From an uncultured Candidatus Saccharibacteria bacterium (GTDB lineage: Bacteria; Patescibacteriota; Minisyncoccia; Phycocordibacterales; UBA918), in the NCBI GenBank assembly GCA_964611205.1, contig CAZSZB010000004.1:12121-76120 (forward strand): a stretch of 64,000 nt of DNA. Reading direction: 5' to 3'. A program made the position numbers and the translations under genes. The notes under the pieces are model-generated. The model searched no databases, was not told the origin of the DNA, and was given only the letters and a program-made list of their open reading frames with translations. Positions 20,902 through 39,447 of this stretch are shown piece after piece (position 1 is the stretch's first letter; the number at the start of each line of letters is the position of its first letter).

Positions 20902-21053
20902 TATGCGCGTTTAGCCCACAATTAGGGCAATTTTCTATTTTGCATTTTATTTTTTGTGCACAGTAGGGAGGTTTAAAAGAACATTATTGATTTATACGTA
21001 TATTATTAAGTAAGTATAGGTGAATATAATTAAATAATTAATTAACAATTACT

Positions 21054-23228
21054 ATGGCACGAGCATTTCCACTGGATAGACTACGTAACTTCGGTATCGT
21101 TGCACACGTTGATGCCGGGAAAACAACAACATCAGAACGCATTCTTTTTTATACAGGAATGAGTCACAAAATGGGTGAGACCCACGACGGTACATCAATT
21201 ACTGACTGGATGGACCAAGAACGTGAGCGCGGTATTACTATTACTGCCGCTGCTATTTCTTGTAACTGGGCGAAAACTTTAGAGACTGATCGCACTAATA
21301 AAGACAAGATGTACAGTTTCAACATCATCGACACTCCTGGACACATCGACTTTACTGCCGAGGTAAAACGATCGATGCGCGTGCTCGACGGAGCAGTGGT
21401 TGTATTCGATGGGGCAGCAGGAGTAGAGCCACAGACTGAAACTAACTGGGGTTATGCCGACGAAGCTAGTGTGCCACGAATTTGTTTCGTCAATAAAATG
21501 GATAAATTAGGAGCTGATTTTGATGCTTCTGTAAAATCTATTGAAAATCGTCTTTCTAAAAAAGCTTGTCGTATTCAAATCCCAATGGGCTCAGAAAACA
21601 ATATGCGAGGTGTGATAGATCTGATCACTATGAAGGCCTATACTTTTGGCGGGGAAATGGGAATGGAAGTTAGCGAACAAGAAATTCCTGAAGAATTCAA
21701 AGCTGAGGCAGAAAAACGTCGCGCTGAACTTATCGAACGTGTAGTTGAACATGATGATGCTCTGATGGAAGCCTTTCTAGAAGGGAAGGAACCTTCTTTA
21801 GAGGATTTAAAGAAGACTCTTCGTAAAGCTGTTTTAGCTAACGAGATTTTCCCAGTGATGACTGGTACTGCTCTACAAAATGTTGGAGTGCAACTAATTC
21901 TTGATGCCGTGGTTGACTACCTCCCGTCGCCACTAGACCTGCCTGATACTGTAGGACATGATCCAAAAGACGAAGAAATTACATTAACTCGCAAGGCTTC
22001 TGACGAAGAACCAATGTCTGCTCTAGTTTTCAAACTCCAAGATGACAAGTTTGTTGGTCAATTAGCTTTCTTCCGAGTTTATTCTGGTGTTATTAAAAGT
22101 GGTACATATATCCTTAACGCTTCAACAGGTAACAAAGAGCGAGTAGGACGAATTGTCCGCTTGATGGCTGATAAACGGGAAGAGGTAGAAGAAGTGTATG
22201 CTGGAGAAATTGCTGCTGCCGTAGGTATTAAAGAAGTAAAAACATCACATACACTATGTGATGTCGATAAACCAATTCTACTAGAAACCATCACTTTCCC
22301 AGCTCCGGTGGTAGCAGTTCGGGTAGAACCAAAGACAAAGAACGACCAAGAAAAAATGGGTGTGGCTTTGAAGCGATTGGCTGATGAAGATCCGACATTT
22401 GTGGTCTCGACTGATGATGAAACATTAGAGACTATTATTGCTGGTATGGGTGAGTTACACCTAGACATTCTGATCGACCGTATGAAACGAGAATTTGGTG
22501 TTGAAGCAAATATTGGTCAACCACAGGTTGCTTACCGAGAAACTATTCAACGAGAAGCTGAAGCTGAACACAAATATATCAAACAATCTGGTGGTCGTGG
22601 ACAATATGGTCATGTTAAGATCCGTATTAAACCACTCGAACCCCTAGCTGAAGGGGAGACCGTAGCTAAGAATGTGACTCGCGAAGATCATTTCGAGTTT
22701 GTCAACAGTATTAAAGGCGGTACTATTCCACAAGAATATATTCCAGCAGTGATGAAGGGTTGTAGAGAGGCCATGGCTCGTGGTCAGGTAGCTGGTTATA
22801 AGATGGAAGATGTTTCCGTTGAATTGTTTGACGGTTCTTACCATGATGTGGACTCAAGCGAAATTGCCTTTAAATTGGCTGGTATTAACGCTTTCAAGGA
22901 AGCAGCTAAGAGAGCTAATGCGGTTATTCTTGAGCCGATAATGAAGGTTGAAGTGCGAACTCCAGAAGAATATATGGGAGATATTAACGGAAATATTTCT
23001 TCTAAGCGCGGACAAGTAGAGGCTTCAGAAGAATTGGGTGGAAAAACTATTGTTCACGCCAAGGTGCCTTTGTCTGAAATGTTTGGTTACACAAATACTT
23101 TGCGTTCTATGACACAGGGCCGAGCTTCAATGACAATGGAATTTGATCATTATGAAGTAGTGCCTCCAAACGTAGCCGAGGAGATTAAAAAAGCTCGAGG
23201 AGTTAAATCAGATGTTGAGACAGCTTAA
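21054..23228 (+). CDS. fusA: Elongation factor G
   Basis: The G-domain motif AHVDAGKTTTSE is present in a 724-aa protein. Confidence 0.95.
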   Translation: MARAFPLDRLRNFGIVAHVDAGKTTTSERILFYTGMSHKMGETHDGTSITDWMDQERERGITITAAAISCNWAKTLETDRTNKDKMYSFNIIDTPGHIDFTAEVKRSMRVLDGAVVVFDGAAGVEPQTETNWGYADEASVPRICFVNKMDKLGADFDASVKSIENRLSKKACRIQIPMGSENNMRGVIDLITMKAYTFGGEMGMEVSEQEIPEEFKAEAEKRRAELIERVVEHDDALMEAFLEGKEPSLEDLKKTLRKAVLANEIFPVMTGTALQNVGVQLILDAVVDYLPSPLDLPDTVGHDPKDEEITLTRKASDEEPMSALVFKLQDDKFVGQLAFFRVYSGVIKSGTYILNASTGNKERVGRIVRLMADKREEVEEVYAGEIAAAVGIKEVKTSHTLCDVDKPILLETITFPAPVVAVRVEPKTKNDQEKMGVALKRLADEDPTFVVSTDDETLETIIAGMGELHLDILIDRMKREFGVEANIGQPQVAYRETIQREAEAEHKYIKQSGGRGQYGHVKIRIKPLEPLAEGETVAKNVTREDHFEFVNSIKGGTIPQEYIPAVMKGCREAMARGQVAGYKMEDVSVELFDGSYHDVDSSEIAFKLAGINAFKEAAKRANAVILEPIMKVEVRTPEEYMGDINGNISSKRGQVEASEELGGKTIVHAKVPLSEMFGYTNTLRSMTQGRASMTMEFDHYEVVPPNVAEEIKKARGVKSDVETA

Positions 23229-23257
23229 CTACACAAGATACGATTAAGTCTGCATAA

Positions 23258-23296
23258 ACAAAAGACCAGTCGCTATTGCGACTGGTCTTTTGTTTA
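23258..23296 (+). terminator. Intrinsic terminator after fusA
   Basis: Stem AGACCAGTCGC, loop tatt, stem GCGACTGGTCT, followed by TTTGTTT. Confidence 0.7.
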
Positions 23297-23365
23297 TATT
23301 CAGTAATACACAGTCTAGGTTCTGCCTAAGTATATTTAGATCAAACACAGGTTACAATATAAGTA

Positions 23366-24367
23366 ATGTCTTCATCAACTCGGGTGTTCCTGTTTACTGT
23401 CGTAGCTTTGTTTATCTCAGCCATTGCACTTTTGTCTGTTGCTATAGCGAGTGCAGATGTTGGTCCCTTTGATCAGCCTGTGGAAATGTCTGGCTATGCT
23501 TGGAGTAGTAATGTCGGCTGGATATCCCTAAACTGCTCTAATGATAGTTCTTGTGCTACATCAGACTACAAAGTAAGAATAAACACCGATTATACAGTCA
23601 CCGGCTATGCTTGGAGCAGTAACGTTGGTTGGATTAAATTTGGTGGTCTTTCTGGTATGCCGGCTAGTGGCGGACAAGCCCAGATAAACAATGACCGAGA
23701 TCAAATGACTGGTTGGATAAGAGCTTGCTCAGCTACCGACGCTGGTGATTGTACTGGAGGATTAGACCCTGATGGTGGTGGTTGGGATGGTTGGATTTCT
23801 TTAAATTGTTCTAATAACAGCGGTTGTGCCACTTCCAATTACGCTACTACTGTAGGAGTAGGTAGTTTTGGTAATTACGCCTGGGGCGGTGATGTTATTG
23901 GTTGGGTAAGCTTTGCTACAGCTGATTTCACTCAACCATGTACCCCCGCTCTGGCTTGTAATGCTGAAAATAATGGCTATGCTATTAACAATCAATGGTG
24001 TGAATCAGAGGCGCCAGTTAGCTGTGCGGGTAATGAATATTGTTATGACACTGTAGGTTGTAAGTTAGTAGATATTAACTATCAATTTTCTGTCAATCAA
24101 TTATTAGTTAAAAAAGAAGGGAAAGTTACTTTAGATTGGTCAGTTGATGGAGCTGATGTATCACAATGTAAGGTGACTGGTAACAACAATGATTCCTGGA
24201 TTGGTCTAACTGATGAGAGCGTATCTGGTGGAGTAGCAATTGTGTCTAGTCCTTTAACTAGACAGGTAACAGCCTTTACTCTTAGTTGTGTTCCAGCCGG
24301 TGGTGGTAGTTTCTATGATTTGAAAACTATTGAAGTTAACCTAGTACCAACGATAATCGAAAGCTAA
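23366..24367 (+). CDS. Secreted Trp-rich repeat protein
   Basis: It has a signal peptide and three repeats of the type GYAWSSNVGWI(S/K)(L/F)..C.. Confidence 0.55.
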   Translation: MSSSTRVFLFTVVALFISAIALLSVAIASADVGPFDQPVEMSGYAWSSNVGWISLNCSNDSSCATSDYKVRINTDYTVTGYAWSSNVGWIKFGGLSGMPASGGQAQINNDRDQMTGWIRACSATDAGDCTGGLDPDGGGWDGWISLNCSNNSGCATSNYATTVGVGSFGNYAWGGDVIGWVSFATADFTQPCTPALACNAENNGYAINNQWCESEAPVSCAGNEYCYDTVGCKLVDINYQFSVNQLLVKKEGKVTLDWSVDGADVSQCKVTGNNNDSWIGLTDESVSGGVAIVSSPLTRQVTAFTLSCVPAGGGSFYDLKTIEVNLVPTIIES

Positions 24368-24368
24368 C

Positions 24369-24677
24369 ATGCAAATAATTCGTAATTTTTTCACAAAGTA
24401 CCAAATATCTATCCTTATTTTATCTAATATATTGATATTGATTACTATTTGTTTGGTTTTATATGGTTGGTATTATCTCTATACTTCAAACCTGACGAGC
24501 CATAAGTTTTTTGGAATAGATGACGATTCAGAATCAAGTGAGATTGAAGAAAAGACATCTCAAAAAATAACTCTTGAAGATAAAAAAGCTTTATTGGAAA
24601 AACTAGAAGGCAATCCCGATAATGTGTCAATTGAAGATAAACGAAAATTATTATCGACTCTCCAGTCGTCTGAGTAA
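24369..24677 (+). CDS. Small membrane protein with an acidic, Ser-rich tail
   Basis: 102 aa with a single transmembrane helix. Confidence 0.4.
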   Translation: MQIIRNFFTKYQISILILSNILILITICLVLYGWYYLYTSNLTSHKFFGIDDDSESSEIEEKTSQKITLEDKKALLEKLEGNPDNVSIEDKRKLLSTLQSSE

Positions 24678-24699
24678 GTTCTATTTTAAATAAAATATA

Positions 24700-24900
24700 A
24701 CCATGAAAACCCTCACCACCAGCCTCATAAAAATCTCCATCATCCTCACCATCGTCACGGTCGCTTTCGCCGTCAACTACATCCAAGCTGCTTGGTCCGC
24801 TCCACAGAACAACCCACCAGATGGCAACACCCCAGCTCCCATTAACACCGGCAGCGAAGCCCAGGTGAAAGAAGGAGCTTTATCAGTTGATGGATTAGTA
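24700..24900 (+). repeat. Copy 1 of the ~195-bp 5' module (signal peptide plus conserved stalk start)
   Basis: About 90% DNA identity to copies at 25471, 26148, 28146 and 28900. Confidence 0.8.
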
Positions 24901-25398
24901 TCCCACTCTAACAACAACATCTTTGTGGGTGCCGGGGAACAAGAATTTTATGTCAAACCCGGGTTTAAGGGTGAGGTACAGACTAGTGGATATACTACGA
25001 TAGGTACTTCTTCAGGTACTGTGTATACACCTAATGACTTTGAGGTAGGAGGTCAAGTACGAGCTAGTCAGTATTGTGATGAGAATGGGGCTAATTGTTT
25101 AAGTGGTGGGGGGTCATCAGGCGAAAATGGAGTGTTGGGAGGCGGTTGGCCAGTTTTTTTTGTGTGTGAAACACGGAGCGATTTTAAAAGTTTATTCATT
25201 TTATTAAAAATGAACCCATCGACCGTAGTATACGGGACTTTCAATGTGTCCCAAGCAGACAGAACTTCTACTTGGCATTCGTACGTTTATTTTAACAAAT
25301 TAGACAGAAACCCTACAGGATCTGGAGATTATGCCCCGCCGTCATGTGCAAAAAACATGGATACCTTGATCAGTGAAGGAAAGGCCATTTTCAATTAA
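24703..25398 (+). CDS. Paralog A of the island family: shared N-terminal module with a unique C-terminal domain
   Basis: N-terminus MKTL..IKISIIL.IVTVAFAVNYIQAAWSAPQNNPPDGNTPAPIN.G.EAQVKEGALSVDGL. Confidence 0.7.
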   Translation: MKTLTTSLIKISIILTIVTVAFAVNYIQAAWSAPQNNPPDGNTPAPINTGSEAQVKEGALSVDGLVSHSNNNIFVGAGEQEFYVKPGFKGEVQTSGYTTIGTSSGTVYTPNDFEVGGQVRASQYCDENGANCLSGGGSSGENGVLGGGWPVFFVCETRSDFKSLFILLKMNPSTVVYGTFNVSQADRTSTWHSYVYFNKLDRNPTGSGDYAPPSCAKNMDTLISEGKAIFN

Positions 25399-25461
25399 TA
25401 TTTTATTTTTAGCTAAACAGAAATCTTAAGCAAAAATCACAATATAACAGTTCATTTTAAT

Positions 25462-26142
25462 TTGATAACAACCATGAAAACCCTCCCCCACACCATCATA
25501 AAAATCTCCATCATCCTCACCATTGTCACGGTTGCTTTCGCCGTCAACTATCTCTACGCTGCTTGGTCCGCCCCACAGAACAACCCACCAGATGGCAACA
25601 CCCCAGCTCCCATCAACGCTGGTACTGAAGCCCAAGTGAAAGAAGGAGCTTTGTCGGTGGATGGGTTAACTTCGTATGCCAATAACAACATTTTTGTTGG
25701 TGCAGGAGGTCAACAATTCTCTATCAAGCCAGGGTTTAAGGGCAATACACAAACTAGTGACTATACAACAATTGGTGACGCCTCTAGTACAGTCTATATT
25801 TTAGGCAGTTTAGAAGTAGAAAATAGCAACGGTACAGGCAGTGATTATTTGTGGCGCTATGAGAATTTTGATGAAGATATTTACCCTTCTTTTTTTCCAG
25901 GTATTTGTGCTTATGGGTTGAATTGGAAATGTCCCGGCTGGGACAAAGTAATGTGGAAACAACCTCCAGCTAGTAGAGATACTTGTAATCAAAATATTAA
26001 CGGACCATACACATGCGCTGTAAATGAGAGTAAGACATGTAACGATGTAATTAAGGCGTGTGATCATTCGGGCGAACCTTGTGGTTATTCTGAAAGTATA
26101 GTGACTTGTAAAAAGTTAAAAACTCCCTACGTGATAGAATAA
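25462..26142 (+). CDS. Paralog B of the island family, with a Cys-rich C-terminal domain
   Basis: It carries the same N-terminal module; the probable start is MKTLPH at 25474. Confidence 0.7.
   Translation: MITTMKTLPHTIIKISIILTIVTVAFAVNYLYAAWSAPQNNPPDGNTPAPINAGTEAQVKEGALSVDGLTSYANNNIFVGAGGQQFSIKPGFKGNTQTSDYTTIGDASSTVYILGSLEVENSNGTGSDYLWRYENFDEDIYPSFFPGICAYGLNWKCPGWDKVMWKQPPASRDTCNQNINGPYTCAVNESKTCNDVIKACDHSGEPCGYSESIVTCKKLKTPYVIE
25471..25670 (+). repeat. Copy 2 of the 5' module
   Basis: Near-identical DNA. Confidence 0.8.
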
Positions 26143-26147
26143 TAAAT

Positions 26148-26345
26148 ATAATGATAAAAACCCTCCCCCACACCATCATAAAAATTTCCATCATTCTCGG
26201 CATCGTCACGGTAGCTTTCGCCGTCAACTACATCCAAGCTGCTTGGTCCGCCCCACAGAACAACCCACCAGATGGCAACACCCCAGCTCCCATCAACGCT
26301 GGTACTGAAGCTCAAGTGAAAGAGGGAGCTTTGTCGGTGGATGGG
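26148..26345 (+). repeat. Copy 3 of the 5' module
   Basis: Near-identical DNA. Confidence 0.8.
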
Positions 26346-26747
26346 TTGGCTGTTTTCGGAAATATGATTATTTCTGGAAGTACAATTATTGGCAGCACTA
26401 CCTTGCCGTCAAGCGACATTACCTTGGGTGTGGATGGTTCAATAGGAGCCACGTCGTATTTATATACTTCAGATAAGAACTTAAAAACAAACATTAAAAC
26501 AGTAGCTGGTCTTGATACAGTTAAACAGCTGCGCGGAGTATCCTTTAACTGGAAAAAAAATGGTAAGAAATCTGTAGGTCTTATTGCTCAGGAAGTAGAA
26601 GAAGTGTTTCCAGAATTGGTCACCACTACAGACAGTGGACTCAAATATGTTGAGTACGGAAATTTAATTGCGCCACTTATTGAAGCTATTAAGGAACAAC
26701 AAATTCAAATTAATCAGTTACAGGCAGAACTGGATACTTTGAAATAG
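26151..26747 (+). CDS. Paralog C of the island family, with a C-terminal intramolecular-chaperone domain of the phage tail-fibre/endosialidase (peptidase S74) type
   Basis: The C-terminus SDKNLKTNIKT..LRGVSFNWKK..GLIAQEVEEVFPELV..KYVEYGNLIAPLIEAIKEQQ matches the S74 auto-chaperone consensus. Confidence 0.7.
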   Translation: MIKTLPHTIIKISIILGIVTVAFAVNYIQAAWSAPQNNPPDGNTPAPINAGTEAQVKEGALSVDGLAVFGNMIISGSTIIGSTTLPSSDITLGVDGSIGATSYLYTSDKNLKTNIKTVAGLDTVKQLRGVSFNWKKNGKKSVGLIAQEVEEVFPELVTTTDSGLKYVEYGNLIAPLIEAIKEQQIQINQLQAELDTLK

Positions 26748-26750
26748 AAT

Positions 26751-28109
26751 ATGGTGAATAAAATTTTTATAAAAAAATTTATAGTTCCTATCGCTATCTT
26801 TGTTTTAATTTTACCCATTGGCGTATGGGCTTTGGGAATAGTAGAAGAGGGTTTCTTAGTCAATAATTCAGAAGTAGCAATAGATGCCCACGGTACGTGT
26901 AAAAAAGTAAAAGCTAATGATGGCCGAGAATACTTTGTTCCGACCAAAGGTATAGATGAATGGAGTTCCTTCTTAGAAAATACACCAGTTGGGATGACTC
27001 TTTCAGAATGTATTGATTTTTCTGATCAAGTTGAGTTCATTACTAGTTTTAGCTGTCCCAATCCCTATCATTATATGAGATGTGGTTTGGTGGGTGTTAC
27101 TGATTCTATTACTAGTGATGGTGGATATATATATGCTTTTGAAGATGGGTATAACGGATCATATTCTTCACAAAAATTGCACATATACAAATATAATAAA
27201 GATACAAAATCTGTTTCACTTGTGGAGACAATAAAAAATCTTGGTAATTATCCTAAATGGATAGAGAGTTTTGCTATAAACTCCGATGGTAGTCGAATTT
27301 TACTTACTAGAAGACAAGATGTCGCCGGAGGAACATCTTCATTTTATATTTATGCATTTGATGGTGTGAATGCTAATTTACTTTACACAGGTTCTTATAA
27401 GGGAGGATTTAGCCACAACGTTTCTGCTATAAATGAGGATGGTACCGTGGTGGCTTTTCAAGGAAGAATTTATGAAAAAAACGGATCTACCTATGATGAG
27501 GTGTTTGATAATGGATTTCATGGAGCATTAGCATCCAATGACCCACAACAAAGTCACATAGGTGCAAATCTATATCTTGGTGATGATAGTTTTTATCTCT
27601 TTAAAAGAGAGGGGAGGGGAGACATTGTACAAAAACAGTCTGATGGGTCATGGCAAGTTATACAGTCAATTTTACCAAGTGTAAATAACAAATGGCAGGC
27701 TAGTTTTGCTGCTGTTTCTAACGATTATTCACTTATGGCTATTAACTCAAAAAAGGATTCTTCTTCTAATTATAAATCTGATATTTATAAAAAGAATGAG
27801 TCTGGCCCTGGCTACACCAAGTTGGGCACTATCGACTTGGGAGACCTGCAAAGACATACGGTTGAATTTTCAGCTGCCGGAAGATATTTTATTTCAGCTG
27901 GAAAGACCTGGAACATAGACCCTATGTTAGAAGGTGGTTCGCCGATTGTAGTTAAATCAACGGCAAACTGGATGGATTCTTATAGTACTTCTCAGTTTGG
28001 TTATGCTCATGAGAATAGTCTAGGAGATATTGTGGTAGCAAGGCCAGATATAAATGGTGGAGCTAAATTTTCTGGAAAATTTTATATATACAAGCGACTT
28101 CCCAATTAG
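26751..28109 (+). CDS. Secreted protein with beta-propeller-like repeats
   Basis: It has a signal peptide and repeated SDGS/EDGT..V beta-strand motifs. Confidence 0.5.
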   Translation: MVNKIFIKKFIVPIAIFVLILPIGVWALGIVEEGFLVNNSEVAIDAHGTCKKVKANDGREYFVPTKGIDEWSSFLENTPVGMTLSECIDFSDQVEFITSFSCPNPYHYMRCGLVGVTDSITSDGGYIYAFEDGYNGSYSSQKLHIYKYNKDTKSVSLVETIKNLGNYPKWIESFAINSDGSRILLTRRQDVAGGTSSFYIYAFDGVNANLLYTGSYKGGFSHNVSAINEDGTVVAFQGRIYEKNGSTYDEVFDNGFHGALASNDPQQSHIGANLYLGDDSFYLFKREGRGDIVQKQSDGSWQVIQSILPSVNNKWQASFAAVSNDYSLMAINSKKDSSSNYKSDIYKKNESGPGYTKLGTIDLGDLQRHTVEFSAAGRYFISAGKTWNIDPMLEGGSPIVVKSTANWMDSYSTSQFGYAHENSLGDIVVARPDINGGAKFSGKFYIYKRLPN

Positions 28110-28145
28110 GGTATTAGTAATGTTATTATAGAACATATAAATAAA

Positions 28146-28345
28146 ATAATGAAAACCCTCCCCCACACCATCATAAAAATCTCCATCATCCTCGGCATCG
28201 TCACGGTCGCTTTCGCCGTCAACTACATCCAAGCTGCCTGGTCTGCCCCACAGAACAACCCACCAGATGGCAACACCCCAGCTCCCATCAACGCTGGTAC
28301 TGAAGCCTAAGTGAAAGAAGGAGCTTTGTCGGTGGATGGGTTAAC
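28146..28345 (+). repeat. Copy 4 of the 5' module
   Basis: Near-identical DNA apart from the C-to-T change that creates the stop. Confidence 0.8.
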
Positions 28346-28841
28346 TTCGTATGCCAACACTAATATATTCATTGGTGCTAATAATCAAAGTCTCGAAATT
28401 AAACCTGGCTCAAAAGGCTCTGTTAGTGCCGCCGGCTACACTACTCTTGATGTGGTTGGTGCCAACGGCACTCTCTACACTCCTAAAGACTTAGAAGTAG
28501 GAGGTCAGGTACGAGCTGGTCAGTATTGTGATGAGAATGGGGAGAATTGTTTGACTGGCGGGGGGCCATCAGGCGGAACTCCAATCACTTATTCTGTAAC
28601 TGTGAGGTATCCACAGGATAAGAGTGGTAGCAGTGCAACAAAGTTGATCACTTCAAATGCTGGTTTTTTCATGTGTGCCTTGACCACACACCAAACTATA
28701 TATTATGAGACTTTTGGTTCAGATAACTTGGATGAGTATTGCAAAATCACCTATAATGGAAGTTCTGATGATTGGACATTGACTGGTAGAATCGTTGATA
28801 CAGTGCAGGCTCGGATAACATGCACTATGACCTGTCGTTAA
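28149..28841 (+). pseudogene. Paralog D of the island family, interrupted by an in-frame TAA at codon 54
   Basis: At 28308-28310 the codon GAA GCC TAA replaces GAA GCC CAA (EAQ) found in the other copies. The downstream frame continues with VKEGALSVDGL. Confidence 0.6.
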
Positions 28842-28896
28842 TAAATTAATTATGTACCACTGTACATGATAAAATAAAATTACAGTCTAATCTAAA

Positions 28897-29566
28897 GTGA
28901 TAATGAAAACCCTCCCCCACACCATCATAAAAATCTCCATCATCCTCGGCATCGTCACGGTCGCTTTCGCCGTCAACTACATCCAAGCTGCCTGGTCTGC
29001 CCCACAGAACAACCCACCAGATGGCAACACCCCAGCTCCCATCAACGCTGGTACTGAAGCCCAAGTGAAAGAAGGAGCTTTGTCGGTGGATGGGTTAACT
29101 TCGTATGCCAATAACAACATTTTTGTTGGTGCAGGAGGTCAACAATTCTCTATCAAGCCAGGGTTTAAGGGTGGGGTGGAGACTGGAGGGTATGTGACTT
29201 TAGACCCGTCAGGGACAAGTAGTTCTCTTTATGTTCCTGATAATTTGGGGGTGGGAGGGCAGGTGAGAGCCGGTCAGTATTGTAATGAAGATGGTATCGT
29301 GTATTGATGGAGGGAGTGTTATAGGTACACTGTCGACTCATAATTTTACCATAAGGGGTTACGATGGTGAAAGTCAGTCTATGAATGTGGGGGAATATAG
29401 CTTCTGTGCTTTAACACGTGTTGAAATTTTTGATGATGGTGGGGCACGAGGGTGGCCAACGGAAGGATGTTATTTAAGTCGCTCCGGAAATAACTGGACA
29501 ATGACGGCAACTAATAATTACGGAGGATCGCCGGATATTACGAGATGTGAAGCCACTTGTTTTTAA
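28897..29566 (+). pseudogene. Paralog E of the island family, split by a frameshift near 29293-29295
   Basis: The N-terminal module plus ..GGQVRAGQYCNEDG then shifts frame; the next frame reads ..VSCIDGGS.., homologous to NCLTGGG of paralog D. Confidence 0.55.
28900..29100 (+). repeat. Copy 5 of the 5' module
   Basis: Near-identical DNA. Confidence 0.8.
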
Positions 29567-29646
29567 AGCAACTAATTTTTCAAATACACAAAAATTAGAA
29601 AATATACATATATTTAGGATTTTGTTCTATGAGATAAATTGATAGC

Positions 29647-29675
29647 TTGCAAAATGTGTGCATATTCTGTAATAT
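29647..29675 (+). promoter_or_regulatory. Candidate sigma70 promoter for tuf
   Basis: -35 TTGCAA, a 17-bp spacer, -10 TAATAT, about 180 nt upstream of the tuf ATG. Confidence 0.45.
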
Positions 29676-29858
29676 TGCGGACACTGCATACGGCCTTCGG
29701 TCGTGGTAGGGCAATCATAATCGCTCTTTCACACTTTTGAGTGTGCTTTGGTAACGTACTGTTCTCGTGCCGTTTCCATAACACATTCAGCCGAGGTTTT
29801 TATATTTAAAACCCAGCCGTGTGCGGTTGCATTTATAAAAATTAATCTAACTAATTTT

Positions 29859-31049
29859 ATGTCAGATTTTGATCGTTCAAAGCCGCACGTAAACGTTGGA
29901 ACTATTGGTCACGTTGACCATGGTAAAACAACTCTTACGGCTGCGATTCTAACTACCCTAAAAGCTCACGAGAGCGAGGGTTACAGTGCTAACGTTAAAG
30001 ACGTTGGTGATATTGATAAAGCCCCAGAAGAAAAGGCTCGTGGTATTACTATTTCTCTTTCTCACTCTGAGTACGAGACTCCTAATCGTCACTACGCGCA
30101 CATTGATGCTCCTGGTCACGCCGACTACATTAAGAACATGATTACTGGTGCCGCCCAGATGGATGGTGCTGTACTTGTAGTAGCTGCTACTGATGGTGCT
30201 ATGCCACAAACTCGTGAGCACGTACTATTGGCCAAGCAAGTTGGTGTACCTAGTATCATTGTTTTCCTAAACAAATGTGATCTAGTTGATGATGAAGAGA
30301 TGCTCATGCTAGTAGAAGAAGAGCTTCGTGAACTTCTAACTGCTAACAAATTTGACGGAGAAAATGCTCCGATCATACATGGTTCTGCTCTAAAGGCTTT
30401 AGAGGGAGATGCCGAATACCAAGCTAAAATTATTGAATTGGCTAATGCGATGGATTCATTCTTCCCAGAACCAGTTCGTGAGCTTGATAAACCTTTCCTA
30501 ATGCCAGTAGAAGACATCTTCTCTATTGAAGGACGCGGTACAGTAGTAACTGGTCGTGTAGAGCGAGGTAAGGTTAAGGTAGGAGAAGAAATCGAAATTG
30601 TTGGAATCAAGAATACTGTTGTCACAACTGTGACTGGTGTTGAGATGTTTAATAAACAACTTGATGCAGCTCAAGCTGGAGACAATGCTGGTATTTTGCT
30701 ACGAGGTACTAAAAAAGAAGATGTACACCGTGGTCAGGTTCTAGCTGCTAAAGGTTCTGTTACTCCACATACTGAATTTGAAGCCGAAGTGTACATACTT
30801 TCAAAAGATGAAGGTGGTCGTCACACTCCTTTCTTCTCAGGTTATAAGCCTCAGTTCTATATTCGTACAACTGACGTAACAGGAGACGTTACGCTAGCTG
30901 AAGGAACAGAAATGGTTATGCCAGGAGACACTGCAACTTTCAAAGTAAAGCTAGTATCTCCAGTAGCTCTAGAGGAACAACAAAGTTTTGCTATTCGTGA
31001 AGGAGGTAAGACAGTGGGAGCTGGTGTTGTAACCAAAATAGTCGCTTAA
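29859..31049 (+). CDS. tuf: Elongation factor Tu
   Basis: The protein starts [25 protein letters not shown]. The ORF-track start at 29748 is an in-frame upstream extension. Confidence 0.95.
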
Positions 31050-31118
31050 GCGATTTAAACCACCTTGTCTCCCTCAAATTAACAGAGAGGAAAGATGAGG
31101 TAGTAAATTGAAAATATT

Positions 31119-31475
31119 ATGGCAACACAATCTACATCAAAAAAAGATAGCAAAGAGGCAGCTGGAGAAATCCAGAAACTACGTATCCGTGTTCGTGCTT
31201 ACGAACATAAGATATTGGACGCTTCAGTGAAACAAATCATTGATACGGCTATGCGTTTCGACGCTAAAGTGGTTGGTCCGATTCCATTACCGACAGAAAT
31301 AAAAAAATATACAGTTAACCGCTCATCATTCGTGTACAAGGATGCGCGAGAACAGTTCGAGATGCGTATGCATAAACGCGTTATCGACATCCATAGTCCA
31401 AGTGCAAAGGTGATTGAGGCATTAACTAATTTATCTCTGCCGTCTGGAGTGAACATCGATGTAAAAATGATCTAG
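31119..31475 (+). CDS. rpsJ: Ribosomal protein S10
   Basis: 118-aa S10 with an N-terminal extension. Confidence 0.9.
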   Translation: MATQSTSKKDSKEAAGEIQKLRIRVRAYEHKILDASVKQIIDTAMRFDAKVVGPIPLPTEIKKYTVNRSSFVYKDAREQFEMRMHKRVIDIHSPSAKVIEALTNLSLPSGVNIDVKMI

Positions 31476-31591
31476 AGAAGTTAACTGATATAAATTATAT
31501 TTGTTAAATAGATTATATTCTTTATTCTAATTTGGATATTAAGATAGATAATCTAGCTTTGAAAATCATTTCTTTTCTCATTGCCATATAA

Positions 31592-31627
31592 CAAAAGACC
31601 GGCGCCTTTGGCGCCGGTCTTTTGTTA
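31592..31627. terminator. Strong intrinsic terminator directly after rpsJ
   Basis: Stem GACCGGCGCC, loop ttt, stem GGCGCCGGTC, followed by TTTTGTT. Confidence 0.75.
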
Positions 31628-31697
31628 TAAACATAACCCTATAAAACCTTTCTTATTTCAAGTTATGCTAAATAAATAGACTAAAATAAAGCAAATC

Positions 31698-31910
31698 ATG
31701 AATTTTGAAAATCAACACAATCTCACCCCTGAAGATGAAGCCTTAATTAAAAAGGTTATAGAAGAAGCAGTAGAAGAAATTCCTGAAATTACTCCAGTAA
31801 AAAGATCACGACCGGCTGAATTAGGAGAAGATGACAACCAACATCCATTAAAATCAGAAGATGAGATAGAAAGGTCTTTAAATCCTCATGGTTTCGAGGA
31901 ATTAAAATAA
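31698..31910 (+). CDS. Small acidic hypothetical protein
   Basis: 70-aa ORF with no recognizable domain. Confidence 0.35.
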   Translation: MNFENQHNLTPEDEALIKKVIEEAVEEIPEITPVKRSRPAELGEDDNQHPLKSEDEIERSLNPHGFEELK

Positions 31911-31956
31911 ACTACAAAAATATTTTCAACACACAATACTCCAGTTAACTGGAGTA

Positions 31957-32274
31957 TTATTGTTCAGGTTTACGCTCGCGGCTCTTAAACACAAAGTCTT
32001 TTAAGGACTTTGTGTTTTTAAGTAATTGATAAATAGCTTCTGGTTGTTCAGTGTGGACCGATATTTTTTGGATACTTTGACCAGATATAAGGAGTTCAAA
32101 ACCGGCGTTTGTATAAACACAGGTCAAAAATCTCTTTCCAGATCCTTTTTTGCTGTTTACTTTAATTTCACCAGGAGCAATCATTTTTATGCCTGGTATT
32201 TTTTTTAATTCACGAACGACGGTCTGAGCAGTTTCAGTTAGAGTAGTATGTTCACGTCCTCGAGCTTTAGTCAT
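31957..32274 (-). CDS. Hypothetical protein
   Basis: 105 aa starting at MTKARG. The first 11 codons of the ORF-track version overlap the terminator T-run and are rejected. Confidence 0.45.
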   Translation of the reverse strand: MTKARGREHTTLTETAQTVVRELKKIPGIKMIAPGEIKVNSKKGSGKRFLTCVYTNAGFELLISGQSIQKISVHTEQPEAIYQLLKNTKSLKDFVFKSRERKPEQ

Positions 32275-32289
32275 TATGAGGAGAATAGC

Positions 32290-32320
32290 ATAAAAAGAAA
32301 AAGGCACCTAAGTGGTGCCG
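32290..32320 (-). terminator. Intrinsic terminator on the minus strand
   Basis: Stem GGCACC, loop acttag, stem GTGCC, then TTTTTCTTTTT when read on the minus strand. Confidence 0.5.
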
Positions 32321-32331
32321 AGTCCCCCTCC

Positions 32332-32535
32332 TTAGAAGCTGTCATAATCCCCCGGAGGGTATTTTCCCGTCCAGCCTTGAGTAGCCAAGGGAGGGCGGTT
32401 CGATCCGAACTGTTCCGTCTTGGCTAACCATTGAGCGAATTCGTGCCCATCAGTTTGCAGCCGTGATTCGGAGTGTTCGTTTGGACCAGGTGAAGTTCCG
32501 TCACCTTGTGGTCCATCATTGTGCATAATCAACAT
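32332..32535 (-). CDS. Small hypothetical protein in a GC-rich segment
   Basis: 67 aa starting MLIMHNDGPQGDG, with an AGGAGG ribosome-binding site 8 nt upstream. Local GC is about 55%. Confidence 0.45.
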   Translation of the reverse strand: MLIMHNDGPQGDGTSPGPNEHSESRLQTDGHEFAQWLAKTEQFGSNRPPLATQGWTGKYPPGDYDSF

Positions 32536-32593
32536 ATTTTTCACCTCCTCATTATTTGTACCACACAATAATTAACTATTTTATATTTTTGAA

Positions 32594-32640
32594 CACAAAA
32601 ACCGGTACCCCCTCATTTGGGAGTACCGGTTAGTTTTTTC
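32594..32640. terminator. Bidirectional intrinsic terminator
   Basis: AAACCGGTAC, loop cccctcatttgggA, stem GTACCGGTT, then AGTTTTTT. Confidence 0.6.
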
Positions 32641-32670
32641 TGCACGCTTCACTACCTCGTGTGACTGGCC

Positions 32671-32883
32671 TTAACCTTTGGTCAGTGCATCCAGGGTTTC
32701 TTTAGCGAGGTTGTCAAGAGATCCCTTGACCAACTTCTGAGTCAGCCGGATTTTGCACTGCTCAGTGGCACAGTACAGTTTGTAGCCCTTGGCAGAAACA
32801 TACAGAGCGCTGCCCAGGCCGTCAACTACGACTTCTCGACCGCACCCGCAAGCACACGGCACCGTGACATTTGAATGTTCCAT
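32671..32883 (-). CDS. Small zinc-ribbon protein (CxC...CxxC), GC-rich
   Basis: 70 aa starting MEHSNVTVPCACGCG, with a second Cys pair YCATEQC, and an AAGGAGA ribosome-binding site 7 nt upstream. Confidence 0.5.
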   Translation of the reverse strand: MEHSNVTVPCACGCGREVVVDGLGSALYVSAKGYKLYCATEQCKIRLTQKLVKGSLDNLAKETLDALTKG

Positions 32884-33107
32884 GATCGTCTCCTTGTTGA
32901 GTATCGTCAGTACTCTGACAAAAAAATGTAATTTTGGCAAGTTTTTGTTGACTTTGACTTTTATTTCCCGTATTATAGCCGCGTTCTAACCTCGTTATAT
33001 ATGTCCCCTGGTAGGGAGATATAAAACAACAAACCGTTACAGAAGAAGTCACAGCATTCAGCCGAATGTTGTCTTATTATTTATTCAATTAAGTTTCACT
33101 GATCTAT

Positions 33108-33440
33108 ATGTCACGATCTCTATATAAGGGACCGTACGTGGAGGAAAGAATTCTTAAGAAAATCGAAGGTAAAAAACCCGAGCAAGTAAAAGCTCCAATC
33201 AATATTTGGGCTCGCGCTTCGGTTATCTCGCCAGAGATGGTGGGGTTCACCTTCGGGGTTCATAATGGTAAAGAGCATATTGCGGTTCTCGTAACTGAAG
33301 ATATGGTCGGTCACCGTTTTGGTGAGTTTTCGCCAACTAAGAAATTCTACCGCCATGGAGGTAAGATGCAGAAAGAACTTGATCAGAAGAAGAAGGAAGC
33401 AGAAATTGCAGCTGCTAAAGCTGCTAAAGCTGCCTCTTAA
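33108..33440 (+). CDS. rpsS: Ribosomal protein S19 with a Lys/Ala-rich C-terminal extension
   Basis: The protein starts MSRSLYKGPYVE. Confidence 0.9.
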   Translation: MSRSLYKGPYVEERILKKIEGKKPEQVKAPINIWARASVISPEMVGFTFGVHNGKEHIAVLVTEDMVGHRFGEFSPTKKFYRHGGKMQKELDQKKKEAEIAAAKAAKAAS

Positions 33441-33455
33441 ACTTAACGCTTAGAT

Positions 33456-33773
33456 ATGAAAGCAGTTTTAAAAAACTACCGACAATCACCGCGTAAAGTT
33501 CGTCTTATCGCTGGTCTTGTTCGAGGGAAGAAAGTTAAAGACGCGTTAGCAACACTACAATTTGTTGAGAAGCGTGCAGCGGAACCATTTGCAAAAGTGA
33601 TCCGCTCAGCAGTTGCCAACGCAACTCAAGCTGGTGCAAATCCAGACAATCTAATTATTAAGAAAGTGGCCGTTGACAAGGGTACTGTGATTAAAAGACA
33701 CATGCCTCGAGCGCGAGGTTCTGCCTCACCGATCAACAAACGCAACAGTCACATTACCGTTGAACTCGGTTAA
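33456..33773 (+). CDS. rplV: Ribosomal protein L22
   Basis: 105-aa L22. Confidence 0.9.
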   Translation: MKAVLKNYRQSPRKVRLIAGLVRGKKVKDALATLQFVEKRAAEPFAKVIRSAVANATQAGANPDNLIIKKVAVDKGTVIKRHMPRARGSASPINKRNSHITVELG

Positions 33774-33790
33774 ATTAAGTAAGGAATTCT

Positions 33791-34504
33791 ATGACACACG
33801 TAGCACATCCATACATACAGCGACTGGGTATCAATCGTGATTGGCGCAGCCGCTGGTTTGCCGTATCGCCTAAGCAGTACCGAGAGTTTATTCGGACTGA
33901 TCATGCGATTCGTAAACTACTAGAAAAAAAGCTCAAAGGCATGTCAATTGATGCTATTGAGATTGAGCGTGATGAAAAAGCACTTCGTATCCTTATAAAA
34001 ACTGCCCGTCCTGGTCTAGTGATTGGACGTAGTGGTGAAGGAGCAACTCAACTTCGCAAAGATGTTGATCTACTTTTACGAAAATTAAAATTATCTGAAA
34101 AACCTGAAATCAAGATTGATGTTGAGGAGATTCGTTCTGTAGAAAGTAGTGCCGCAATCGTAGCTCAAATGATAGTTGAAGGACTTGAAAAAAGAATGCA
34201 ATTTCGTCGAGTTTTAAAACAGACAGTCGAAAAAGCAATGGCTAACCGTGACGTAAAAGGTGTTCGTATCATCGTGTCAGGACGACTCGGTGGCGCTGAC
34301 ATGGCTCGTCGCGAGGAGCTAAAAAAAGGTCGAATCCCACTCCAGACTCTCCGTGCAGATATTGATTTTGCTCGTGAGCGAGCCAATCTACCTTACGGTG
34401 TGATTGGTATTAAAGTTTGGATTTATCGAGGTGATGTTTTTGGTGATCGTAATACAGAAAAAAGCGATAACAAGCCAGCTCGTCACAACAGTCGTAATGC
34501 ATAA
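33791..34504 (+). CDS. rpsC: Ribosomal protein S3
   Basis: 237-aa S3 with a KH domain. Confidence 0.95.
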   Translation: MTHVAHPYIQRLGINRDWRSRWFAVSPKQYREFIRTDHAIRKLLEKKLKGMSIDAIEIERDEKALRILIKTARPGLVIGRSGEGATQLRKDVDLLLRKLKLSEKPEIKIDVEEIRSVESSAAIVAQMIVEGLEKRMQFRRVLKQTVEKAMANRDVKGVRIIVSGRLGGADMARREELKKGRIPLQTLRADIDFARERANLPYGVIGIKVWIYRGDVFGDRNTEKSDNKPARHNSRNA

Positions 34505-34514
34505 CTAGAGACTT

Positions 34515-34949
34515 ATGTTATTTCCTAAAAAGGTAAAACACCGCAAGTGGCAGGTGATGCGCAGACATCCTGATAAATTCAAACGACCAGATACACGAGG
34601 GGTAACAGTAGATTTTGGTTCTTACGGATTAAAGGCTACGACCCAATCTCGCGTCAAGTCTAATCAGATTGAAGCAGCACGACGAGTCATTAGTCGTACT
34701 ATGGGAAAATCTGGAAAAATGTGGATTCGTATTTTCCCAGACCGTCCGGCAACTAAGAAAGCTGCCGAAGTACCGATGGGTAAGGGTAAGGGTGATCCAG
34801 AGTACTTTATGTTTGAAGTTTATCCCGGTCGAATATTATTCGAAATTGAAGGTGTTCCTGAAGAGGTGGCTCGTGAAGCGCTTCGCAAGGCGACAGCTAA
34901 GCTGCCTGTAAAGGCCAAGTTTGTTCGTCGTGAGGATACCCGCGTGTAG
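34515..34949 (+). CDS. rplP: Ribosomal protein L16
   Basis: 144 aa. Confidence 0.95.
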   Translation: MLFPKKVKHRKWQVMRRHPDKFKRPDTRGVTVDFGSYGLKATTQSRVKSNQIEAARRVISRTMGKSGKMWIRIFPDRPATKKAAEVPMGKGKGDPEYFMFEVYPGRILFEIEGVPEEVAREALRKATAKLPVKAKFVRREDTRV

Positions 34950-34961
34950 TTAAGTAATTAT

Positions 34962-35174
34962 ATGAGTACATATAAAGACATTCAGAAGAAAGACGATAAA
35001 TCACTAGTAGAACTAGTTAAGGAGAAGCGAGAAGCCATTCGGTCTTTTCGGTTTAGCAATACTGGTAGCGCTACTCGTAATGTACGTCAGGTAAGAGCAG
35101 ATAAGAAAGCTATTGCCCAGGCTTTGACTGAACTTAACGCCCGTCAGAAAGACCTAGCTAACGAAACTAAATAG
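34962..35174 (+). CDS. rpmC: Ribosomal protein L29
   Basis: 70 aa. Confidence 0.85.
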   Translation: MSTYKDIQKKDDKSLVELVKEKREAIRSFRFSNTGSATRNVRQVRADKKAIAQALTELNARQKDLANETK

Positions 35175-35443
35175 TGAATATGGAAGAAAAAAACACTAAA
35201 GACGTTGCAACTACTGGTGGTCGAGTGCTGAAAGGTACTGTGGTAGCTAGTAAAATGCAGGATACTATTACTGTAGCAGTGGAACGTTACACTAAGCATC
35301 CAAAGTACAAAAAGTATATGCGTCGCACCAAAAAATTCTTAGTTCATGATGCTGGTAACACAGCACAAGTAGGGCAAAAGGTCGAGATTAAGGAAACACG
35401 CCCGATGAGTAAACGAAAACGTTTTACTCTCGTTAAAGCATAA
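35174..35443 (+). CDS. rpsQ: Ribosomal protein S17
   Basis: 89 aa. Confidence 0.9.
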   Translation: MNMEEKNTKDVATTGGRVLKGTVVASKMQDTITVAVERYTKHPKYKKYMRRTKKFLVHDAGNTAQVGQKVEIKETRPMSKRKRFTLVKA

Positions 35444-35450
35444 TAATCTT

Positions 35451-35822
35451 ATGATTCAACCACAAACAATCGTGAAGATTACAGACAACTCCGGAGGAAA
35501 AGTAGGTCGTGTTTTCAAGGTCCTTGGTGGATCTAAAAAGCGCTACGCGGAACTCGGAGAGTTGGTAATACTATCAGTACAAATTGCTGAACCACGGAAG
35601 AACGTAAAGAAAAAAGATGTTGTGTGTGGAGTCGTTGTGCGACAGCGTAAACCATACCGACGAAAAGATGGTTCTTATGTAAGTTTTGACGACAACGCTG
35701 TTGTCCTAATTGATAAAGAGAAAAAAGAACCAAAAGCCAACCGTGTGTTTGGTCCTATCCCACGCGAATTATCAGAAGCTGGTTTCCAGAAAATTGTATC
35801 ACTTGCTCCAGAAGTAGTTTAG
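35451..35822 (+). CDS. rplN: Ribosomal protein L14
   Basis: 123 aa. Confidence 0.95.
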   Translation: MIQPQTIVKITDNSGGKVGRVFKVLGGSKKRYAELGELVILSVQIAEPRKNVKKKDVVCGVVVRQRKPYRRKDGSYVSFDDNAVVLIDKEKKEPKANRVFGPIPRELSEAGFQKIVSLAPEVV

Positions 35823-35962
35823 TAAGTCTTATGAGTAAAACGAATTAGAACTACTTAACCCAGCCCTACTTTTGTTGCCAATATTCTGTTGATACAAAAA
35901 GTAACAAAAGTAGAGCTGGATAGGATTGTTTCTAAGCTCGTAAACTCGCTAAAAAAAATCAT

Positions 35963-36262
35963 ATGAAAATCAAAAAAGGAGACACTGTGAAAATAATTGC
36001 TGGAAAGGATAAGGGTAAGACTGGTAAAGTAGAAGAAACTTTCGCTAAAATAGAAAAAGTTGTAGTAGAAGGAATCAATATTGCTACTAGACACCAGAAG
36101 AACCGCCAAACTGGATCACAGGGTCAAATAGTTGAAAAATCAATGCCGATACATGTTTCTAATGTGTCTATTATGGAAGGAAAGAAACCAGTTCGGGTTG
36201 GTTATAAGGTCGAAGATGGAAAGAAAGTAAGGGTGGCTAGGCCATCAGGTAAAAATATTTAG
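35963..36262 (+). CDS. rplX: Ribosomal protein L24
   Basis: 99 aa with a KOW motif. Confidence 0.9.
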   Translation: MKIKKGDTVKIIAGKDKGKTGKVEETFAKIEKVVVEGINIATRHQKNRQTGSQGQIVEKSMPIHVSNVSIMEGKKPVRVGYKVEDGKKVRVARPSGKNI

Positions 36263-36303
36263 GAAATTAATAAGTAATAAATTACGATTAAGATTTCTAA
36301 GTA

Positions 36304-36882
36304 TTGTCTACTCAAAAAATTATGACTACAACAATGAAAGAAAAAGTTGCCGGTTCATTTGAAGCCCTAAAAGGCGCCTTCAATTACAAAAATGTAAACC
36401 AGGCACCAAAGATTGAGAAAGTTATTGTTTCTACTGGTACTGGCAAGATTGAAGATAAGAATAGGCTCGAGCTTATTCAAGATCGTCTAGCTAGAATTAC
36501 TGGTCAGAAATGTTCACCACGGCCAGCTCGTCTTTCCATTGCTTCATTTAAATTGCGAGAAGGAGATATCGTTGGTTACCAAGTAACTTTACGAGGATCT
36601 CAGATGTATAACTTTTTAGATAAGTTAATTCACATCGCTTTACCGCAGACTCGAGATTTTCGAGGTTTGAAAGTTTCTGCAATTGATGAGATGGGTAATA
36701 TAACTCTTGGTATTAAAGAAAGTTCTATTTTTCCAGAAACTCATGATGAAGATCTAAAGGACGTATTTGGCTTAGCTGTTACTATCGTAACTACAGCCAG
36801 AAGTAGAGAAGAGGCTGAAGCTCTACTCCGATTCATTGGCTTGCCGTTGCAGAAGCCAGAAGTAGTTGAAGCTAAAGAATAA
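36304..36882 (+). CDS. rplE: Ribosomal protein L5
   Basis: 192 aa. Confidence 0.9.
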   Translation: MSTQKIMTTTMKEKVAGSFEALKGAFNYKNVNQAPKIEKVIVSTGTGKIEDKNRLELIQDRLARITGQKCSPRPARLSIASFKLREGDIVGYQVTLRGSQMYNFLDKLIHIALPQTRDFRGLKVSAIDEMGNITLGIKESSIFPETHDEDLKDVFGLAVTIVTTARSREEAEALLRFIGLPLQKPEVVEAKE

Positions 36883-36939
36883 ATAACCAAAACGTAACGG
36901 TTGAGGTAATCTATATATCGTAAATCTGCGATAAAATAC

Positions 36940-36973
36940 CAAAAGGGCGGCACCCAAGTGCCGCCCTTTTGGT
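36940..36973. terminator. Intrinsic terminator after rplE
   Basis: AAAA, stem GGGCGGCAC, loop ccaa, stem GTGCCGCCC, then TTTT. Confidence 0.65.
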
Positions 36974-37259
36974 TGTCTAGCTAATAATTCTTAGTCTTCG
37001 TATTTAGATAAATTTATTTCATAGGATTCTGGTTTTACCCTTGTATTTTCCATATTTTCACGTATAGTAGTGACCAATATAAACTCAATAGTTAGGTGTT
37101 TGGGTTTGTAGAAGACAGGCGCTACCTGGTGCTTAGTCGGATTTATAAGGTAGAAAGGTCGTGGCATCTACACGAAACCGCTACAAAATTTAATATATGA
37201 TACCGAAACGAGTGTCGTTTTAGTCACTCTGCTCGTTGTTTCATTTAATTTTTAAAAAA

Positions 37260-37834: not shown

Positions 37835-37838
37835 TAAT

Positions 37839-39445: not shown

Positions 39446-39447
39446 GT

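Follow-up and report, generated by a model that had tools for sequence, protein, structure and literature searches.

A tandem array of putative surface-protein genes between fusA and tuf of an uncultured Candidatus Saccharibacteria bacterium includes two copies that are probably young pseudogenes

The stretch of DNA analysed here, called the window below, comprises 64,000 nucleotides (nt) of an uncultured Candidatus Saccharibacteria bacterium (NCBI GenBank assembly GCA_964611205.1, contig CAZSZB010000004.1, positions 12,121 to 76,120 of the forward strand); all positions given without a contig name are those of the window. Between fusA and tuf, the genes for EF-G and EF-Tu, it carries five paralogous genes, here called copies A to E. 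A, B and C are intact, D is broken by a nonsense codon and E by a frameshift, and it is the nature of these two lesions that is discussed here. To judge by its gene content and the protein family, the organism is probably a bacterium with a small genome, of the Patescibacteria/CPR type. Every gene from 21054 to 31049 lies on the plus strand, in the order fusA, a gene for a protein of 333 amino acids (aa), a 102-aa gene, A, B, C, a 452-aa gene, D, E and tuf. As rpsL and rpsG are found upstream of this locus and rpsJ downstream, the array is situated within the str/S10 ribosomal-protein region. The copies, their shared DNA blocks and the site of the frameshift are the following.

24703 to 25398, plus strand: copy A, intact, 231 aa (P0003)
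25474 to 26142, plus strand: copy B, intact, 222 aa (P0004)
26151 to 26747, plus strand: copy C, intact, 198 aa, with a Peptidase_S74 intramolecular-chaperone domain as its tip (Pfam PF13884, E-value 5.8e-18)
28149 to 28841, plus strand: copy D, full length, broken by a single nonsense codon
28903 to 29566, plus strand: copy E, full length, broken by a single frameshift
28149 to 28343, plus strand: conserved 5' module of D (signal/anchor helix, then PPDGN...QVKEGALSVDGL)
24703 to 24897 (A), 25474 to 25668 (B), 26151 to 26347 (C) and 28903 to 29097 (E), plus strand: counterparts of the 5' module
28471 to 28540, plus strand: 70-nt stalk-tip junction block of D (…GGQVRAGQYCDENG), with counterparts at 25019 to 25088 (A) and 29225 to 29294 (E)
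29293 to 29299, plus strand: frameshift site GGT A TCG in E, with the shift at 29296, inside the YCxExGxxC / YCDENGxNC junction

The encoded proteins share one architecture. An N-terminal hydrophobic helix is followed by an invariant W...PPxGN...P...Q.K module, a stalk, a YCDENGxNC junction and a variable tip, which is Cys-rich or of the S74 type. At the DNA level, the 5' module of about 200 nt has a 41-nt exact core that is common to the five copies (0 expected by chance), and the junction block constitutes a direct-repeat family, D2, with 73-87% identity among A, D and E. The N-terminal surface-protein family is uncharacterised but very widespread: a profile search retrieved 2,484 representatives of clusters formed at 50% identity, at E<=1e-3 among 1.84 billion. 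In an alignment of 82 members, the W, N, P, Q and K of W..P..PPxGN..AP.N.G...Q.K.G.L are invariant, and all five copies carry these positions, except that the Q of D is a TAA. Many members of the family likewise have a stalk, a YCDxxGxNC junction and then a variable tip; the tips of the wider family comprise H-type lectin, phage tail collar, fibrinogen-C, Lcl_C, Fib_succ_major, Pgp3-like and S74 domains.

For A, B, D and E, no family was found in Pfam or NCBIfam, and sequence searches of the PDB did not reveal a solved relative. Word-index protein searches returned only the window's own proteins and P0002, P0017, P0018, P0020 and P0044. Protein-pattern scans of metagenome, genome and viral contig collections gave no confirmed relative, and scans of metagenome and genome contig collections for the exact 29-nt core gave nothing. 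The AlphaFold2 model of P0017, built on the 82-sequence alignment, has a predicted local distance difference test score (pLDDT) of 60 and is confident only for the N-terminal helix (residues 2-29, pLDDT 86-97) and the junction. Copy C matches phage tail-fibre PHROGs through its S74 domain, a domain known from the ends of such fibres, and a search of 50,697 phage records with tblastn was without a hit. A phage origin was rejected on these grounds, the PHROG hits being the only ones in the array and confined to the S74 domain of copy C. The architecture suggests that the copies encode secreted or membrane-anchored fibre-like binding proteins with exchangeable tips.

Copy D extends from the ATG at 28149 to a TAA TAA at 28841, and its codon 54 is a TAA at 28308-28310 (GAA GCC TAA GTG). 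An earlier inspection of the DNA, the sequence-only reading, had described five paralogs in which D has a stop where the others have a Gln codon. This is correct: the aligned codons are GCC CAG in A, GCC CAA in B, GCT CAA in C and GCC CAA in E, and behind the TAA the frame of D stays open for 176 codons to 28841. Counted from the ATG, the first 200 nt of D and E are identical except for position 160, where a C-to-T change creates the TAA of D. The Gln54 that is lost in this way is invariant in 82 of 82 family members. The product of D would be a stub of 53 residues, and reinitiation at the adjacent GTG, if there is any, would yield a protein lacking the signal segment.

In copy E, the reading frame that starts with the ATG at 28903 continues ...CAG TAT TGT AAT GAA GAT GGT (29293-29295) ATC GTG TAT and ends at a TGA (29305-29307). 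The +1 frame, read from the TCG at 29297, encodes SCIDGGS...RCEATCF and is open for 90 codons until the TAA at 29564-29566. The frame change had been recognised in the sequence-only reading and can now be placed at 29296. One extra codon between the GGT at 29293-29295 and the TCG at 29297-29299 restores the C-x-x-x-G-x-x-C spacing of the junction; thus the lesion is a net loss of 2 nt at 29296 (or a gain of 1 nt together with the loss of one codon). The product of E would be a protein of 134 residues without a tip.

Both copies still encode recognisable full-length family members, as follows from comparisons with P0018, a protein from another metagenome. When repaired, D and E align with P0018 from end to end (D with 35% identity and an E-value of 1e-30, E with 37% and 8e-36). 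The 91 residues after the shift in E match the tip of P0018 (E-value 2e-7), with which they share the ending RCE(A/M)TCF, and the tip of D matches it as well (E-value 0.007). The homology that had been proposed between the shifted frame of E and the tip of D is thus found by way of this intermediate, but not in the direct pairwise comparison, where 26% identity corresponds to an E-value of 1.2 and is not significant. In the multiple alignment all six Cys and the Trp align. With a stop frequency of about 6% per codon, which we calculated from the base composition, open frames of 176 and 90 codons would arise with probabilities of about 1e-5 and 3e-3, respectively. Hence the frames downstream of the lesions are not expected by chance.

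The position of the TAA in place of a Gln codon could be taken as a hint of programmed recoding, in which the TAA of D would be read through or reassigned to Gln and the ribosome would shift to the +1 frame in E. Gln can indeed be inserted when UAA is read by a near-cognate tRNA, and E does require a +1 shift and has a frame-0 TGA nearby. However, TAA is the commonest stop codon of the window, where it terminates 41 of the 69 open reading frames (ORFs), among them A, B, D and E. A suppressor tRNA was not found in the window, and the homologues are uninterrupted at both positions. In E, homology puts the shift at GGT-A-TCG, where there is neither a slippery nor an RF2-like context. RF2-like +1 frameshifting at the TAT TGA was rejected for the reason that the homology of the +1 frame already starts upstream, at TCG TGT. 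Taken together, recoding appears scarcely credible as an explanation for the two interruptions.

An artefact of sequencing, assembly or consensus calling has to be considered in a repeat-rich region, all the more as the 5' modules of D and E are identical over more than 140 nt and break the contigs of the megahit assembler. The megahit contigs of the ENA assembly ERZ27247346 were 100% identical to the window across both lesions. One of them, L002 (874 bp), spans 28167-29040 including the TAA, and another, L003 (10.6 kb), spans 28921-39566 including the frameshift. It is precisely within the repeated 5' modules of D and E that the contigs of this assembly end, as is expected of a de Bruijn assembler, whereas both lesions are well inside single contigs assembled with k=141; the TAA is about 50 nt away from D-specific sequence and the frameshift is in unique sequence. 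Furthermore, housekeeping genes are intact across the 64 kb, and the four fragment proteins of 53, 176, 134 and 91 aa are called in the NCBI, JGI and ENA records. We therefore regard an artefact as very unlikely. An artefact of a single assembler is excluded by these data; a polymorphism in the population would be compatible with them.

Such a polymorphism would mean that the lesions are unfixed and that the assemblers took the majority allele from a mixture of intact and broken ones, which could reflect on/off heterogeneity or ongoing conversion. Some microdiversity does exist, for the Logan contig L005 shows 2 mismatches to the window over 1894 nt, and a perfect template for the repair of D is only 754 bp away. 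Yet the same alleles are seen in ERZ27247346, a second assembly of this strain, and in the fragment proteins that NCBI and JGI have on record, and a collection of 15 billion proteins held no intact D or E protein on an alternative contig. A mixture of alleles thus seems rather improbable to us. Heterogeneity by slipped-strand phase variation was rejected, since there is no homopolymer or tandem repeat at the lesions. Tandem Repeats Finder did not detect a tandem repeat in 23000-30000, and neither lesion is situated in a homopolymer (contexts GAAGCCTAAGTG and GATGGTATCGTGT); the slippage-prone GG run that the sequence-only reading had suspected at the frameshift does not exist.

Contigs from related strains bear on the age of the lesions. 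L001, which comes from a different sample (ERR1341804), contains a copy that matches D over the first 402 nt and has CAA instead of TAA. Apart from this, it differs from D by three changes in the leader and four in the body (one non-synonymous, three synonymous). This D-type copy is the third copy of L001 and joins the D-type stalk to a tip that is absent from the window. A second contig from ERR1341804, L007, shares 98.3% identity with window positions 26205-28343 and also reads CAA in the copy after the 452-aa gene. Thus both contigs have a Gln codon at the position of the stop in D. P0002, P0017, P0018 and copies A, B and C likewise show no stop or shift at the positions of the D and E lesions, and at least the lesion of D is strain-specific. 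The recent origin of the lesions, which the sequence-only reading had raised, is well supported by these observations: there is one lesion per copy, the frames and the conserved residues are intact, the 5' parts of D and E differ by the nonsense base alone, and a related strain carries CAA.

The 452-aa gene of L007 shows a peculiarity of its own. Positions 1259-1318 of the contig differ from window positions 27463-27522 by 7 substitutions in 60 nt, 6 of which change an amino acid. One of the changes in L007, GGA to TGA at window position 27522, splits the gene into ORFs of 257 and 124 aa. Either the gene has become another young pseudogene in L007, or this part of the short contig is prone to errors. 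The TGA in place of GGA prompted us to consider genetic code 25 (UGA = Gly), which was rejected: further stops follow the ORFs that end with TGA, so that TGA is a true stop, and when the TGA of E is read as sense, the frame still ends 12 codons later.

A more distant relative, L008, was found in another metagenome (its EF-Tu is 91% identical at the protein level). Here the order is fusA, a 312-aa gene, a 110-aa gene, one fibre gene (encoding P0018), tuf, rpsJ and rplC. The locus is therefore old, the expansion to five copies is lineage-specific, and E, which adjoins tuf, corresponds in position to the single ancestral gene. An ortholog of the body of E itself was not found in the protein searches.

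The five copies have exchanged sequence with each other and with related strains. Inside the window, copy E resembles D in nt 1-210 and B in approximately nt 97-270. The longest runs of concordant polymorphic sites comprise 52 sites for B and E and 22 sites for D and E (each p<2e-4 by permutation of the site order). When the window is compared with L001, the identity alternates along the array: it is 72% in the stalk of copy A (upstream of 25060), 99.5% in 25060-25485 (the tip of A, the spacer and the start of B), 85% in the 5' module of B and 100% in 25597-26150, the remaining 554 nt of B. Hence the breakpoints between window and L001 fall into the junction block 25019-25088 (near 25059) and into the 5' module. 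The 5' modules are also set apart by their GC content at third codon positions, which is 0.58-0.63, in contrast to 0.25-0.39 in the rest of the copies and the neighbouring genes (0.25-0.31 in the neighbours, 0.30-0.39 in the copies downstream of the module) and 0.35 in the single-copy homologue of L008. Either GC-biased gene conversion in the repeated module or its acquisition from a foreign source could account for this.

Copies at the C and D positions of L001 (1306-1962) and L007 (1935-1950) have the leader ATG ATA AAA of the C type together with about 12 nt upstream of it, indicating that conversion tracts extend into the upstream spacer. The flanks of the array are mosaic, too. In 29646-31500, tuf and rpsJ of the window and L001 are only 78-80% identical, and in 20969-24785, compared with L006, fusA is 100% identical for the first approximately 1400 nt and 89-93% identical in its 3' third. 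Such flanks suggest that lineages have recombined around the island, or that two related organisms are present in that sample.

The recombination is relevant to a further suggestion of the sequence-only reading, namely that D and E are deliberately silent donor cassettes which can be repaired by recombination with an expressed copy. A dedicated system for antigenic or host-range variation would keep D and E non-expressible and copy their tips into an expressed copy, in the manner of pilE/pilS or vlsE/vls. In favour of this, the variable modules are bordered by conserved anchors for recombination, the broken E and the intact B share significant conversion tracts, modules are swapped between strains, and the frames downstream of the lesions are intact. 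In Neisseria pilE/pilS, Borrelia vlsE/vls and Anaplasma msp2, the donors are promoterless and truncated at the 5' end, and there is one dedicated expression site. The array resembles these systems in its conserved N-terminal and variable C-terminal parts, in non-expressed copies with open variable segments, in recombination at short conserved sequences, and in conserved blocks that bracket the variable segments (the 5' module in the five copies, the junction in A, D and E). However, D and E are complete genes with ATG, signal/anchor segment and a short AT-rich upstream spacer like those of A to C, and they are disrupted by single point lesions. These lesions differ in kind and position, and that of D is absent from the D-type copy of the related strain. 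No asymmetry between an expression site and donors is visible, and the relative L008 has a single intact gene without a donor array. We thus consider it unlikely that D and E serve as dedicated silent cassettes, and the sequence-only reading is not supported on this point; nothing in the sequence would indicate that the two copies are maintained for such a purpose.

The repair that was suggested along with the cassettes is a separate matter. The conversion tracts and the module swaps between strains make it mechanistically reasonable, and for D it would be easy because the 5' module of E, identical except for the nonsense base, is located 754 bp downstream. Gene conversion is thus a plausible route by which D and E might be repaired or reused, although the consensus assemblies show no repair or donation in which the lesions took part.

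Our preferred interpretation is that D and E are ordinary young pseudogenes in a recombining, modular tandem family of surface proteins, each having suffered one very recent loss-of-function mutation; we give this a probability of about 0.68. The simplest reading is that the two lesions are independent and occurred in redundant members of the family. In D, a C-to-T transition at 28308 has turned the Gln54 codon into TAA, and in E a small indel has occurred at 29296, within the junction motif. Recombination at the two conserved DNA blocks, i. e. the 5' module and the 70-nt junction, gives rise to conversion tracts between copies and to swaps of stalks and tips between strains. The lesions could then be seen as the 'death' side of a birth-and-death, module-shuffling process that acts on redundant adhesin-like genes. 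D would be restorable in one step by conversion from the 5' module of E, and the tips of D and E would remain usable as donors.

Several points weigh against this interpretation. All assemblies that reproduce the lesions are from the same strain and probably from the same sample, and as they are consensus assemblies, they do not distinguish a fixed lesion from one of intermediate frequency. The CAA in L007 is a weaker witness than that in L001, since L007 is short, carries radical substitutions near one end, in the signal segment, and contains the patch of 7 substitutions mentioned above. As no ortholog of the E body was found, it is the open 90-codon frame and the retained conserved residues that speak for a young frameshift. 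A role as fibre-like surface proteins is predicted from the architecture, and the structure models were too poor to be used (AlphaFold2 pLDDT 42 for the D fragment, 60 for P0017).

Comparable situations are known from other bacteria. In Helicobacter pylori, babA, babB and babC are complete paralogs with conserved ends that trade variable segments by gene conversion; in some strains copies are out of frame or silent, and conversion can restore or replace them. The array has in common with the bab genes that complete paralogs share conserved ends and that some copies are broken. However, bab genes are often switched on and off through CT dinucleotide repeats and their loci are dispersed, whereas the present array is tandem and has no repeats at the lesions.

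The closest precedent for the pattern is the lpl cluster of Staphylococcus aureus, tandem lipoprotein-like paralogs in which a conserved intragenic block is the site of homologous recombination (Tsuru & Kobayashi 2008, PMC2568036). Both arrays consist of tandem paralogs on the same strand that encode surface proteins with a presumed role in host interaction, and both recombine at a conserved intragenic block. As in lpl (PMC2568036), the variable 3' part, the spacer and the next 5' end move as a unit, which here is 25060-25485 with its 99.5% identity. In contrast to lpl, the array has two conserved blocks and hence three parts that can be shuffled, it encodes unrelated fibre-like proteins instead of lipoproteins, and it is located between fusA and tuf and not in a genomic island such as νSaα. 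The mosaic adhesive trimer (MAT) fibres of Bdellovibrio bacteriovorus, surface fibres of a bacterium that attaches to other bacteria, comprise S74-chaperone and non-S74 members with diverse adhesive tips (Caulton et al. 2024, PMC10769870). Similarly, one S74 member (copy C) is found here beside non-S74 tips. The shared S74 domain is the sole sequence link, however; the fibre architecture is here read from sequence, and the MAT genes have not been reported as a recombining tandem array with pseudogenes. Thus the phenomenon is of an already known kind. In the present case it concerns an uncharacterised but widespread family at an unusual, conserved position between fusA and tuf.

The other genes of the locus are the following.

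21054 to 23228, plus strand: fusA (EF-G), left border of the locus, a 724-aa ORF; the orthologous contig L006 has EF-G Pfam domains
23366 to 24367, plus strand: 333-aa accessory gene with repeated GYAWSSNVGWI motifs, its position kept in L008
24369 to 24677, plus strand: 102-aa gene for a small membrane protein, with a positional counterpart in L008 (the 110-aa gene)
26751 to 28109, plus strand: 452-aa gene, function unassigned, inserted within the array
29859 to 31049, plus strand: tuf (EF-Tu), right border of the locus

The 333-aa protein is without a Pfam match and is 37% identical (E-value 3e-61) to the product of the 312-aa gene at the equivalent position of L008. Its motifs, of the type GYAWSSNVGWI(S/K)F, correspond to a DNA direct repeat at 23492-23523 and 23603-23634. 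As the 333-aa gene is also conserved beside the fibre gene of L008, its product and the fibre proteins may function together. The 102-aa gene and its counterpart agree in size and position, with weak similarity (E-value 0.03).

Promoter and terminator scans of the island were uninformative, and no RNA element was found in it with Rfam. A perfect inverted repeat of 20 nt with a 4-nt loop (23254-23297) follows 26 nt past the stop codon of fusA and is likely a terminator or insulator that separates fusA from the island. At the other end, tuf is preceded in 29640-29858 by a promoter-like TTGCAA/TAATAT pair and, behind it, a leader of about 180 nt. The leader has sequence blocks that are conserved across three genomes, lacks an Rfam match and folds with -60.2 kcal/mol (z=-5.0 compared with shuffles), and is thus a candidate for a structured 5' leader.

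The surrounding ribosomal-protein region also deviates from the usual order. Between rpsJ (31119-31475) and rpsS (33108-33440), rplC, rplD, rplW and rplB are missing, and 31476-33107 is instead occupied by small ORFs, one of them a minus-strand DUF2103 gene; L008 keeps the usual order S10-L3-L4-L23-L2. A further interruption of the str operon is found between rpsG and fusA, where a gene on the minus strand (19854-20828) encodes a 324-aa protein with bacterial TSP3 repeats. Elsewhere in the window, a tRNA-Ile with a genomically encoded TAT anticodon (55926-55999, minus strand) represents the less common route of reading AUA.

With respect to the source of recombining DNA, the window encodes components of a type IV pilus as well as ComEC, RecJ and RecG, and thus functions for DNA uptake and recombination. 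In 1650-15183 there are genes for a PilB-like type IV pilus ATPase, a PilC-like platform protein, a 585-aa prepilin-type protein with an N-methylation motif, RecJ and ComEC. This set of DNA-uptake genes could feed the recombination of the island. A bolder interpretation, which we put forward only tentatively and which is doubtful, goes further: the fusA-tuf interval would be a dedicated tip-switching locus for cell-attachment fibres, with the 5' module and the junction as built-in anchors, transformation would import tips, and D and E would form a transient reservoir in the off state that is routinely reactivated or mined by conversion.

Taken by themselves, the lesions are routine and mainly of value for annotation, in which two disrupted genes, D and E, should replace the four small ORFs. 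The locus as a whole bears clear signs of concerted evolution and of module exchange between strains, and this between two of the most conserved bacterial genes. If the bolder interpretation were true, such a tip-switching locus would allow a bacterium with a small genome, which is probably host-dependent, to alter its attachment specificity. Moreover, if the proteins mediate attachment to a host or partner, an amplicon of about 8.7 kb from fusA to tuf, accessible by polymerase chain reaction, could be used to track the turnover of surface proteins in uncultured populations.

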